A DNA stretch of 64,000 bases. It comes from a bacterium (lineage in GTDB: Bacteria > Chlamydiota > Chlamydiia > Chlamydiales > SM23-39). The translations under genes and the position numbers were made by a program. The DNA is taken from assembly GCA_021781995.1 (NCBI GenBank), contig JAJXVT010000001.1, positions 70,171 through 134,170 of the forward strand, in the 5' to 3' direction. Shown piece after piece: positions 39,927 to 42,443 of the stretch; the stretch's first letter is position 1; the number at the start of each line of letters is the position of its first letter. The notes below the pieces were generated by a model that saw only the letters and a program-made list of their open reading frames with translations, ran no database searches and was not told where the DNA came from.

Positions 39927-42443
39927 ATGTATTTAAGGGATCTCCCAACAGATGCCGTTGTCCATGTAGCTAGTTTTCTGTTGCCTCGTGAGGCGATTTC
40001 TTTCATTCATTGTGTCAACTCAGGTGCTCATTCAAATTGGCTATCGAATCGTCAAAAATTGAAGGCGAGAGCAGATTGTGCTTTGGATGCAATTGCAGCA
40101 GTGCAGCGATCTCTTGAATCGATGGCTCGCCGGGCGTTCCCTCAAGTTATATTCCATCTTAATTTGAGCGATAAAATGTCTTTTTTTTCTCCTCTGCGCA
40201 GTTCCTGTGTGATTGCTCAATTGTATTATGATTTAAGAGCAGTTCGCAATACGCGTCGAGAAGATGCAGGCTTATTTCATTTTGCCATGCAGATGGTTCG
40301 TTTAGATCGGATTCCAGAGGCTCTTAGCGCATCGAGGGACATTCGATCTTTGCGCGGAATTGACGGGGTTTATGCTTTGGAGACTCTTTCTGCTTTATCA
40401 TCTATTACGCCGGAAAATGTTCTGGGGGCGGCGTGGCACATACCAGATCGGGCAGTGGAGGAATTGCTGGCTCGGGGACGTGTCGAGATCGCTTTGCAGA
40501 TGATTTTGCAGATCGAAAAACAATCTTTAAGAGAGTCGATTTTTGAACGGCGAATGATTCCGTATCTGGTTGAAACAAGACGTTTTGATGCTCTTTTAGA
40601 GTTAAGGCCGCACCTGCAGCCGAGATTACGGGATCGTATTCATCAATATATCGGGCTGGAATGTGCCGTTCAACGTGTGTTTTCCGAAGCTATTGTATGG
40701 ATTGAATTGATCGAAAATGACGCTCTTCGCCGAAACTCTTATGCTCAAATGCGAAATAAAGTATTCAGAATACCTGAGTTTTTTAATTCTGTTTTTGTTT
40801 TAGAGGCTATTTCTAGAGATGAGGAGCGTTTGTGGTTTTATCGATCTGTATGTAAGACTATGATGAGTTGCGAAGATAGAGAAGAGGTCTTTTACGGAGC
40901 TGTTAGGCAGATTGCAAATCGACAAGAGCGTGACCTTTGGATTTGTAGATCTTGGATTCCCGCATTGATTTCTCTTCAATCTTGGGGAATGGTCGCGGTA
41001 TTGGAAAGGCAAGTGTTTTCAATAGTTAAATTGAGGAGCTTGTATCGAGAATTGATTGTGCCTCAAATGAGTGAGTTGGCATCTTTGGCTCGCTCTAGCG
41101 CTGCCCGTGAGCGATTAGCGAAATTCGAGCGGCTTGGCGTGTATCTAGACGGGCTGTCCATGCGCATTTGCGAACAGTTAATTCCAGAACAAAATTTAGC
41201 ACTTGCCTTAGAAATGCTAGAGGATGTTGTGCATCCACCTCTTGGTAACTTAATTTGTTTTGAAATAGCAAAAGCGGCTTTAGCAGATAATGATCTTCGT
41301 TTTCTTTGCGATTGCATTGAACGAATGAGCGTCCCGTATGAACGAAAGGGCTTTTTTTTAAAAGAACTAATTCCTCATTTTTTAAGACAAGATGCGCTAA
41401 ATTTGCTTGGGCAATGTATGAATTTCGTAGAACAGGAAGTGCGAAACCAAATAATTAAAGATATGATTGTTCCATTTTTAATTGCGCAGCAGAGGTGGGG
41501 GGAAGCTTGTTTTGAAGCTGAGCAAATCTCTGATGGGTTTATGAAAGATGTGGTTTTCGCCAAGGACATTATCCCAGCGCTTGCTGCTGCCGGTCAATTA
41601 GAAACGATGTGTAATGCGGCCAGGCAAATCGTGCAAATCCCCGCGCGCAATGTGGTTATTGCAGATATTGTTGTGCCCAATTTAATTCAAAGTGGAAATA
41701 TGCAGCAAGCGGAGGAATGGACTGCTATTGTTATAGATCGAAATACGCGCGATATTTGCTACGGTTTTCTGTTAACCGCTAGGTTAGAGCGCCGAGAGAT
41801 TCGCGAAGTTTTAAGAGTTTTTTCTTTGATCAATAATCGAATGCTGCGAATCGATACGTTAGCTCCGGCTTTAGTCAATCATGAACATTTAGAAGATGTT
41901 TTGTCTATTGCACGAAGTATAGCTCAAACCGATGACTCTGTATTTATGCTTAGGCAAATTAGCGATGCTTTTATGTTAGCAGCTAAATTAGAACAAGCCA
42001 GGGAAGTAGCAAGATGTATTTTACAAGAAGATGAGAGGAATAATGTATTGGCAGAACTAGAAAATCATCCGGCGCGCGCTCATCATTATCGCCAGATCTT
42101 AATTCCTAATTTAATACACGCAATGCAACATGATAGAGCGTTAACTTTTGCCAATTTGATTGCTCCAGGGCCTGTGCAAGATGAGACAAGAGAATATATC
42201 ATTGCCGATTGTATGATGCGAAGGCTCTGGGATACGGCTGCTTCTGCAGCTATGGGCATCACGGCAGAGGCAAAAAGAGATCGAATTTATAAAAGAATAG
42301 CCGCCCGTTGTATTTTATATGCGGAATTTGATCGGGCTTTCGGGGTTTCTCAAAGAATAGTTAATGTTGATTTGCGAACTCATGTTCGTCATAGAATCAC
42401 ATTGATTGCTTTAGTTGTGCAGAACGCTCGTTTTACGCGTTAA
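39927..42443 (+). CDS. F-box-like domain protein with a HEAT-like helical repeat array (effector candidate)
   Basis: N-terminus LRDLPTDAVVHVASFLLPREAISFIHCVN fits L..LP.e....i...L....l.....V. At least 11 recurrences of a hydrophobic-[IV]-P-x-[LFM]-[IVLA] motif (MIPYLVE, WIPALIS, LIVPQMS, LIPHFLR, MIVPFLIA, IIPALAAA, IVVPNLIQ, LAPALVN, LIPNLIH...). Confidence 0.55.
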   Translation: MYLRDLPTDAVVHVASFLLPREAISFIHCVNSGAHSNWLSNRQKLKARADCALDAIAAVQRSLESMARRAFPQVIFHLNLSDKMSFFSPLRSSCVIAQLYYDLRAVRNTRREDAGLFHFAMQMVRLDRIPEALSASRDIRSLRGIDGVYALETLSALSSITPENVLGAAWHIPDRAVEELLARGRVEIALQMILQIEKQSLRESIFERRMIPYLVETRRFDALLELRPHLQPRLRDRIHQYIGLECAVQRVFSEAIVWIELIENDALRRNSYAQMRNKVFRIPEFFNSVFVLEAISRDEERLWFYRSVCKTMMSCEDREEVFYGAVRQIANRQERDLWICRSWIPALISLQSWGMVAVLERQVFSIVKLRSLYRELIVPQMSELASLARSSAARERLAKFERLGVYLDGLSMRICEQLIPEQNLALALEMLEDVVHPPLGNLICFEIAKAALADNDLRFLCDCIERMSVPYERKGFFLKELIPHFLRQDALNLLGQCMNFVEQEVRNQIIKDMIVPFLIAQQRWGEACFEAEQISDGFMKDVVFAKDIIPALAAAGQLETMCNAARQIVQIPARNVVIADIVVPNLIQSGNMQQAEEWTAIVIDRNTRDICYGFLLTARLERREIREVLRVFSLINNRMLRIDTLAPALVNHEHLEDVLSIARSIAQTDDSVFMLRQISDAFMLAAKLEQAREVARCILQEDERNNVLAELENHPARAHHYRQILIPNLIHAMQHDRALTFANLIAPGPVQDETREYIIADCMMRRLWDTAASAAMGITAEAKRDRIYKRIAARCILYAEFDRAFGVSQRIVNVDLRTHVRHRITLIALVVQNARFTR

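Follow-up and report, generated by a model that had tools for sequence, protein, structure and literature searches.

The DNA analyzed here is a 64,000-nucleotide stretch (hereafter the window; GenBank assembly GCA_021781995.1, contig JAJXVT010000001.1, forward-strand positions 70,171 to 134,170) from a bacterium of the order Chlamydiales (lineage SM23-39), and its subject is a plus-strand gene for a protein of 838 amino acids (aa), designated P0001. A preliminary description of this DNA, made from the sequence alone, had delimited the open reading frame (ORF) correctly and had seen in it a long helical repeat protein, which is borne out by a significant 33-34-aa periodicity and by profile recruitment of repeat units. 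It had also read the protein as an F-box-like N-terminus fused to HEAT-like repeats, and as a candidate hijacker of host SCF ubiquitin ligases. The reading that we put forward instead, and that we consider moderately likely, is that of an orphan chlamydial α-solenoid composed of degenerate 33-34-aa TPR/PPR-like hairpins, acting as a protein-binding scaffold, probably as a fast-turnover effector, and bearing no demonstrable F-box.

As proposed, the protein would be almost wholly α-helical, with its hairpins stacked as an α-solenoid, and its array is homologous both to the repeats of an F-box and TPR-like protein family of Parachlamydia sp. AcF125 and to the C-terminal sensor arrays of STAND proteins. 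We infer that the surface of this solenoid would serve as a scaffold capturing a protein partner, and that the protein would be secreted toward a host target, placing it among the fast-evolving repeat effectors that environmental chlamydiae deliver into protist hosts.

A degenerate array of 33-34-aa repeats and its relatives

The autocorrelation of the whole protein, scored with BLOSUM62, has its maximum at a lag of 33 residues, and lesser peaks follow at 34, 66 and 67. At lag 33 it stands at -0.312, against a mean shuffle maximum of -0.676 (standard deviation 0.037); not one of 300 shuffles came up to this value (z ~10), and the repeat array is real, beyond what chance produces. Its period is 33-34 aa, not the 35-40 aa of the preliminary description, and the strict anchor counted there at least 11 times, h-[IV]-P-x-[LFM]-[IVLA] (h, hydrophobic), occurs seven times; [ILV]-P dipeptides number 16.

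The most regular part of the array is a core of four helical-hairpin units at residues 475-609 (Table 1). A profile seeded on these units recruits five more, namely the isolated unit and the four degenerate units listed in Table 1, compared with 0-1 units recruited in 20 control runs with shuffled flanks, and the array-wide profile consensus is VVIADILIPALIAAGQLEQALEAARQIVQEDVRD. Outside the core the array is degenerate, and the N-terminal half of the protein is poorly periodic, with [IV]P anchors at residues 129, 172, 211, 282, 378 and 419. Within the gene no tandem repeat was found at the DNA level, indicating that the array is old and degenerate.

A phmmer search of 1.84 billion representative proteins returned only six proteins at E<=1e-3, the query counted. 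The best relative (WP_213157336.1, hereafter P0002) is from Parachlamydia sp. AcF125 and was matched at an E-value of 9.4e-11. The other four (P0003-P0006; E 1e-6 to 6e-4) are STAND NTPases of CHAT-NB-ARC, caspase-NACHT, NACHT and TIR-NACHT composition, matched through their C-terminal repeat arrays only. A word-index homologue search with the protein recovered the query alone, and we found neither a paralogue within the window nor a homologue in 28 related chlamydial loci; the protein is a singleton orphan.

The unit of P0002 is a very regular 33 aa (ALADISKALAQAGHFEKALEIANAISDEYYKS), and its register coincides with the consensus given above, as seen when the core of the 838-aa protein is set against it (DIIPALAAAGQLE against DISKALAQAGHFE). 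The 'IP-x-L' anchor of the preliminary description corresponds in this register to 'IS-x-AL' in helix A of the P0002 unit. The best match of the protein to a P0002 unit profile is the unit at residues 675-702, with 12.3 bits. P0002 itself passes the Pfam families TPR_12 (58.8 bits), TPR_19 (56.5 bits), TPR_30 (36.6 bits) and ATP13 (71.6 bits), and in the PDB its repeats match designer PPR, natural PPR10, LRPPRC and designed TPR structures, with E-values down to 2e-26. The 838-aa protein likewise matches designer PPR chains in the PDB, over a region that includes the core.

HEAT units are typically 37-47 aa long. HEAT/ARM arrays have in common with the protein a solenoid of two-helix repeats and an occasional proline near the start of helix A, but their units are longer, and all significant matches of the protein are to TPR or PPR. 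No HEAT or ARM family of Pfam matches it, and its relatives show only a sub-threshold HEAT_Nup120. Because of the 33-34-aa period, the Pfam TPR families of the relatives and the PPR/TPR matches in the PDB, we assign the repeats, on sequence comparison, to the TPR/PPR-like helical-hairpin class, homologous to proteins that pass TPR profiles, and not to the HEAT class to which they had been ascribed.

Within this class, structures of PPR and consensus TPR proteins (5i9f, 6een, 4ozs, 7obi) consist of 34-35-aa hairpins whose hydrophobic and glycine register can be aligned with that of the protein over at least three units. In PPR proteins, however, the period is 35 as opposed to 33-34, and the base-specifying positions 5 and 35 are unconserved here, as judged from the consensus by eye. 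RNA binding of the PPR kind was rejected, since the period is not 35, Pfam PPR has no match in the protein and the likeness is that of generic consensus hairpins. The STAND sensor arrays have the 33-34-aa repeat class in common with the protein (..SI.D...RA.AL..LA.ALAQAG..D.A.EVA..), but STAND proteins carry CHAT, caspase or TIR effector modules together with NB-ARC/NACHT ATPase modules, all of which it lacks. A role in anti-phage defence, prompted by the STAND matches, was also rejected, because PADLOC returned nothing and the protein has no NTPase or effector domain.

Several observations weigh against the proposed scaffold-effector reading. The E-values of the protein against designer PPR chains (3e-6 to 1.5e-8) are inflated, since overlapping matches to repetitive designs were summed and single stretches score 11-14 bits. 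The protein does not reach a curated Pfam TPR threshold (best TPR_30, E 0.19, 12.6 bits, cut-off 29.7), and no TPR or PPR profile was passed in an NCBIfam scan. AlphaFold, run without homologues, yielded only helices of hairpin length in a poor model (mean predicted local distance difference test score, pLDDT, 40.5), and solenoid geometry is not visible in the low-confidence models. As regards secretion, the N-terminus is hydrophobic and helix-prone, whereas type III signals are usually polar and disordered, and the nearby CesT-family chaperone gene described below gives no support, being conserved regardless of the presence of the 838-aa protein and thus not dedicated to it.

Table 1. Coordinates in the window of the repeat protein gene, its parts and its two neighbors.
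Feature	Position	Strand	Basis
838-aa helical repeat protein coding sequence (P0001), singleton orphan	39927..42443	+	confirmed ORF
F-box-like half-motif, residues 3-33 (LRDLPTDAVVHVASFL...), no demonstrable F-box	39933..40025	+	profile tests
Isolated degenerate unit, residues 343-358 (WIPALISLQSWGMVAV)	40953..41000	+	iterative unit profile, iE (independent E-value) 9e-4
Region homologous to the P0002 repeat array, residues 425-811	41199..42359	+	phmmer E 9.4e-11; BLASTP high-scoring segment pairs of 21-24% identity, E down to 8e-11
Regular core, four 33-34-aa helical-hairpin units, residues 475-609	41349..41753	+	unit profile; starts 475, 508, 542, 576
Four degenerate units, residues 642-785 (642-670, 681-705, 722-752, 765-785)	41850..42281	+	unit profile
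690-aa TPR protein (context)	42453..44525	-	TPR_17 69 bits, TPR_11 61 bits; convergent with the repeat protein gene, 9-bp gap
yidC (context)	37929..39803	-	Pfam 60KD_IMP; divergent from the repeat protein gene, 123-bp spacer

The N-terminus and the F-box question

The N-terminal string quoted in the preliminary description as fitting the F-box pattern (LRDLPTDAVVHVASFLLPREAISFIHCVN) is present at residues 3-31. Like canonical F-boxes (Skp2, Fbxw7, Cdc4, TIR1, VirF), this segment has Leu-Pro, then an acidic residue, then an amphipathic helix that closes on F-L, all spaced as expected, which makes a weak match to the first half of the domain (L-P-x-[DE] followed by helix-1 hydrophobics ending in [FYL]-L). 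In contrast, canonical F-boxes continue into helices 2-3 with V-C-K-x-W, which the protein lacks, and all its profile scores are at noise level. Neither HMMER nor hhalign aligned anything of this second half past residue 26, and the only tryptophan (W38) lies eight residues past V30, compared with a consensus spacing of four. The pattern thus stood in its first half and not in its second.

Profile searches gave no F-box match. No Pfam F-box family was found at E<=10, either in the full protein or in N-terminal fragments of 50, 56 and 90 aa. As positive controls, 16 eukaryotic F-boxes scored above the Pfam cut-off (25-66 bits against PF12937/PF00646), those of TIR1 and COI1 reached up to 77 bits with the plant-specific PF18511, and that of Agrobacterium VirF scored 18.7 bits, just under the Pfam cut-off of 20.5. 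We also constructed a custom F-box hidden Markov model (HMM) from these 17 F-boxes, checked against Pfam, and searched with all filters off. On the N-terminal 71 aa it scored 4.9 bits, covering only residues 5-26 (LP and helix 1), which align to HMM positions 5-26; on the full protein it scored 1.4 bits (E 11 among 669 chlamydial ORFs). The list of these 669 ORFs is headed by P0002 at 12.6 bits, its isolated domain scoring 17.8 bits. An HMM of the seven Parachlamydia F-boxes described below gave 1.7 bits, and hhalign, given an F-box alignment of 18 sequences and the N-terminus, returned a probability of 6.6% over 24 columns.

To gauge these scores, we compared them with shuffled and arbitrary sequence. 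Composition-matched shuffles of the N-terminus scored at least as high in 213 of 20000 cases (P ~0.01), as did 24 of 6975 arbitrary 71-aa windows of chlamydial ORFs (~0.3%), a level of 1 in 100 to 1 in 300. Among the N-termini of the 669 ORFs the protein ties for first, and at this chance level a genome of ~2000 proteins is expected to hold several N-termini scoring as well. On these profile scores, the F-box resemblance of the first 25 residues appears to be at chance level, and it is unnecessary to explain the protein.

The structural predictions are of too low a confidence to weigh for or against an F-box fold. AlphaFold2, applied to residues 1-120 without homologues, placed helices at 8-16, 20-35 and 41-70 with a pLDDT of 46.0, and Foldseek with this poor model returned nothing from the PDB at E<1 and no F-box protein. 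A phmmer search of the PDB with the N-terminus gave no match at E<=10; since the F-box fragment of P0002 likewise retrieved no F-box chain, a single-sequence PDB search is too insensitive for the F-box. A word-index search with the F-box and linker fragment of P0002 came back empty, missing P0002 itself.

The relatives in Parachlamydia keep the F-box question alive. P0002 is one of seven paralogues in Parachlamydia sp. AcF125 (P0002, P0007-P0012), three of which are named F-box or F-box-like by NCBI and one of which has a precomputed PF12937 match. The isolated F-box-like domain of P0002 scores 20.7 bits against PF12937 (E 3.5e-4; described as under the Pfam cut-off). In all seven, a clear LP-x-E...W-N/E motif lies near residues 135-170, and a linker separates it from the 33-aa array. 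Three of them, P0008, P0007 and P0002, form a same-strand tandem (locus L064, 5187-12295 and 17150-22295); a large RHS/YD-repeat gene is found a few kb from this tandem. Like the 838-aa protein, the family is chlamydial and has 33-aa hairpin units in the register ..ADI...AL..AG..E.AL..A..I..E..., with an LP-x-E-type motif toward the N-terminus. It differs in having a conserved N-terminal domain of ~130 aa, a clearly scoring F-box-like domain and the linker LPWLFDDIF, all three of which are missing from the 838-aa protein, and in repeats that are near-identical where those of the latter are degenerate. Furthermore, the family has expanded in tandem and is rich in lysine (85 K, 25 R), whereas the 838-aa protein is a lysine-poor singleton.

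That F-box and repeat effectors exist in environmental Chlamydiae, as the preliminary description had noted, is documented, and the closest relative of the protein belongs to an F-box and TPR-like family. The NEX2 proteins of Neochlamydia combine an N-terminal F-box with C-terminal TPRs, and in the member tested the type III secretion signal is functional (Domman et al. 2014, PMC4209131). Most NEX2 members also carry a mid-protein DUF294, and some an OTU domain, while PEX2 of chlamydiae combines TPR with CHAT (PMC4209131). TPR and LRR families in Parachlamydiaceae follow birth-and-death evolution, and when representatives of four such families were assayed in Shigella, their type III secretion signals proved functional (PMC4209131). 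Compared with NEX2 by domain content rather than by sequence, the 838-aa protein has TPR-like repeats in common but no detectable F-box, DUF294 or OTU. The F-box and TPR architecture is, then, already known in Chlamydiae.

A divergent but genuine F-box could be considered, one that would dock host Skp1 while the array recruits substrates, so that host SCF ubiquitin ligases are reprogrammed. The motif LP-x-D-hh-x-h-x-x-FL at residues 6-18 fits F-box helix 1 and is the joint-best N-terminus noted above; in P0002 and its six paralogues, repeats of the same class are immediately preceded by an F-box-like motif; and BLASTP aligns residues 1-22 with the motif of P0002, collinear with the repeat matches, with an E-value of 4.3 when taken alone. 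Even VirF, whose bacterial F-box is validated, stays under the Pfam cut-off, which makes weak scores compatible with function, and NEX2 provides the established architecture. We nonetheless regard this reading as fairly unlikely, given the silence of Pfam even on the isolated N-terminus, the few bits won by the custom and Parachlamydia profiles and by hhalign, the unalignable half of helices 2-3, the frequency with which shuffles and chlamydial windows equal the score, and the missing N-terminal domain and linker of the P0002 family. An F-box is thus plausible by ancestry and not shown, the profile searches do not support it, and the hijacking of host ubiquitin ligases is unproven. If the protein descends from an F-box and TPR ancestor, its F-box has decayed beyond detection.

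Lysine content bears on the same question. The protein has 89 arginines and 17 lysines, and its R/(R+K) of 0.84 is the extreme among 40 ORFs of the window (next 0.71, median ~0.52), with lysine-free runs of up to 140 and 114 aa. The 'lysine desert' of cullin-RING receptors has been defined at 150 aa (PMC10665810), and a formal desert was rejected here because the longest lysine-free run, 140 aa, falls short of it. The STAND array protein P0003 is likewise arginine-rich (178 R, 28 K). The depletion may reflect either selection on a host-exposed protein to lose lysines that could be ubiquitinated or the legacy of a high-GC donor array. Such strong depletion would suit a resident of a ubiquitin ligase, but the true F-box paralogues are lysine-rich, so that it is no family trait. 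A cryptic F-box effector, with a Skp1 dock invisible to profiles and with lysines purged to escape ubiquitination inside the host SCF ligase, is in our estimation very unlikely; it would constitute a bacterial counterpart of the 'lysine desert' of eukaryotic cullin-RING receptors.

To our knowledge, no other bacteria hold as many eukaryote-like mimics of the ubiquitin pathway as environmental chlamydiae do, and any newly found F-box effector offers a handle on how intracellular bacteria rewire their protist and animal hosts. If the N-terminal motif did bind Skp1, F-box mimics would hide below profile detection, and lysine depletion would be tied to survival in the host ligase. As it stands, the gene enlarges a known pool of fast-evolving repeat proteins by one member and adds a variable slot beside yidC.

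A variable slot between a TPR gene and yidC

The gene call is sound. The start of the ORF is the first possible start codon past the upstream stop, and among ORFs of at least 80 aa only two overlap it, each of 84 aa, one antisense and wholly within it (41063-41317) and the other sharing only its first 40 bp. The protein is included in the NCBI annotation of the metagenome-assembled genome (MAG) GCA_027457375.1 and is identical across seven contigs from NCBI, Logan and ENA samples. A downstream start that would remove the F-box-like motif was considered; we found no ribosome-binding evidence that favors one start over another.

The base composition of the gene is native (GC content 0.424; GC content at third codon positions, GC3, 0.348). 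Its codon and amino-acid usage is the most deviant of the long genes of the window (Kullback-Leibler divergence, KL, 0.33 versus 0.06-0.13), and its arginine codons differ from those of core genes (CGC 0.15 versus 0.36; AGG 0.15 versus 0.03). Recent horizontal transfer was considered; GC and GC3 are native, but arginine codon choice and amino-acid make-up deviate.

The gene lies between two minus-strand genes, yidC and a gene for a 690-aa TPR protein (Table 1). Orthologues of yidC are present in the 28 chlamydial loci mentioned above, the best YidC matches being 67-74% identical, and the flanking genes match MAGs of Chlamydiota/Parachlamydiales; the source organism is an environmental chlamydia. 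Orthologues of the 690-aa TPR protein, with 37-75% identity, occur in 19 related chlamydial MAG loci (20 with a copy truncated at the end of contig L008). The gene string menE, TPR690, slot, yidC, dnaA, cesT, glgX is kept in ~15-20 related MAG loci, with shorter or rearranged contigs showing it only in part.

The slot itself (window 39804-42452) is variable. In four loci (L009, 8887-9001; L013, 8943-9001; L027; L032) it is empty, with the TPR gene abutting yidC across 50-114 bp, and elsewhere unrelated genes fill it over 0.7-4.5 kb, among them membrane/transport proteins, a glycosyltransferase-like protein and small paralogues (e.g., L022, 4500-9001). The 838-aa protein is encoded on the strand opposite to a long run of minus-strand genes that is otherwise broken only by cesT, also on the plus strand. 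The gene is an insertion specific to its lineage, in a variable slot flanked by conserved co-directional genes. In a close relative whose YidC is 70% identical (L005, 6881-8541, minus strand), the slot contains a tandem pair of paralogous ORFs (266 and 287 aa), each of which starts with M[NP]RIEYTQP.

The convergent 690-aa TPR gene, separated by 9 bp, is as first described, and the meaning attached to two adjoining repeat-scaffold genes was not sustained: because the TPR gene is kept beside yidC whatever the slot holds, the pairing is coincidental. The cesT gene (36069-36590, plus strand; Pfam 91 bits) encodes a CesT-family type III secretion chaperone 3.3 kb from the gene. Its product is 82-88% identical in most relatives, with or without the 838-aa protein, and 67-69% identical in the two most distant (L031, L032). 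Functional coupling of the 838-aa protein to the TPR gene or to CesT was rejected on synteny. In the related MAGs, CesT is far more conserved than the products of the adjacent dnaA (46-55%) or yidC (57-70%).

These data also bear on whether the protein is exported at all. TPR-like arrays are common as intracellular adaptors in bacteria, and a non-secreted internal scaffold, e.g., an assembly or regulatory adaptor in the chlamydial cytoplasm, would be in keeping with the native base composition of the gene, with the role that repeats of this class play as sensor arms in cytoplasmic STAND NTPases, and with the fact that neither a secretion signal nor a dedicated chaperone can be demonstrated. 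Housekeeping scaffolds are, however, normally conserved, whereas this protein is missing from every related MAG, including those with a 67-74% identical YidC, and has no orthologue among the 1.84 billion representatives. Its gene moreover sits in a variable insertion slot, as a lone opposite-strand gene with no operon mate, and the protein has no partner domain, which leads us to consider an internal scaffold unlikely.

The protein might, alternatively, be a decaying remnant without selected function, derived from an F-box and TPR effector or from a horizontally acquired high-GC STAND sensor array. Its repeats are strongly degenerate next to the near-identical units of P0002, the gene retains no repeat at the DNA level, the protein is an orphan, no other long gene of the window deviates as much in codon and amino-acid usage, its richness in arginine and poverty in lysine recall those of high-GC STAND arrays such as P0003, and birth-and-death turnover is documented for such families (PMC4209131). 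Yet an intact frame of 838 codons in DNA of 42% GC would not last long without selection, the identical protein is found on seven contigs, spanning an NCBI assembly and several Logan/ENA samples, and the fully native GC3 implies that any transfer is old and that the frame has stayed open ever since. This is, in our judgment, the least probable of the readings considered, and we retain that of a fast-evolving scaffold, probably an effector.

Further genes of the window

Elsewhere in the window, the string of menaquinone (men) genes contains two non-menaquinone genes between a menH-like hydrolase gene and menD (48934-51491, minus strand). One encodes a 183-aa leucine-rich repeat protein whose N-terminal part contains 'LPEDLIQRIQ', and the other a 669-aa protein with no Pfam match; both are possible further host-interaction genes. 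A 3124-aa ORF (10909-20283, minus strand) has DUF3638 as its sole Pfam match (81 bits, residues 2008-2220), and a 935-aa eukaryote-like Ser/Thr kinase (23911-26718, minus strand; Pkinase 163 bits) carries a weak region resembling 3-keto-disaccharide hydrolase.

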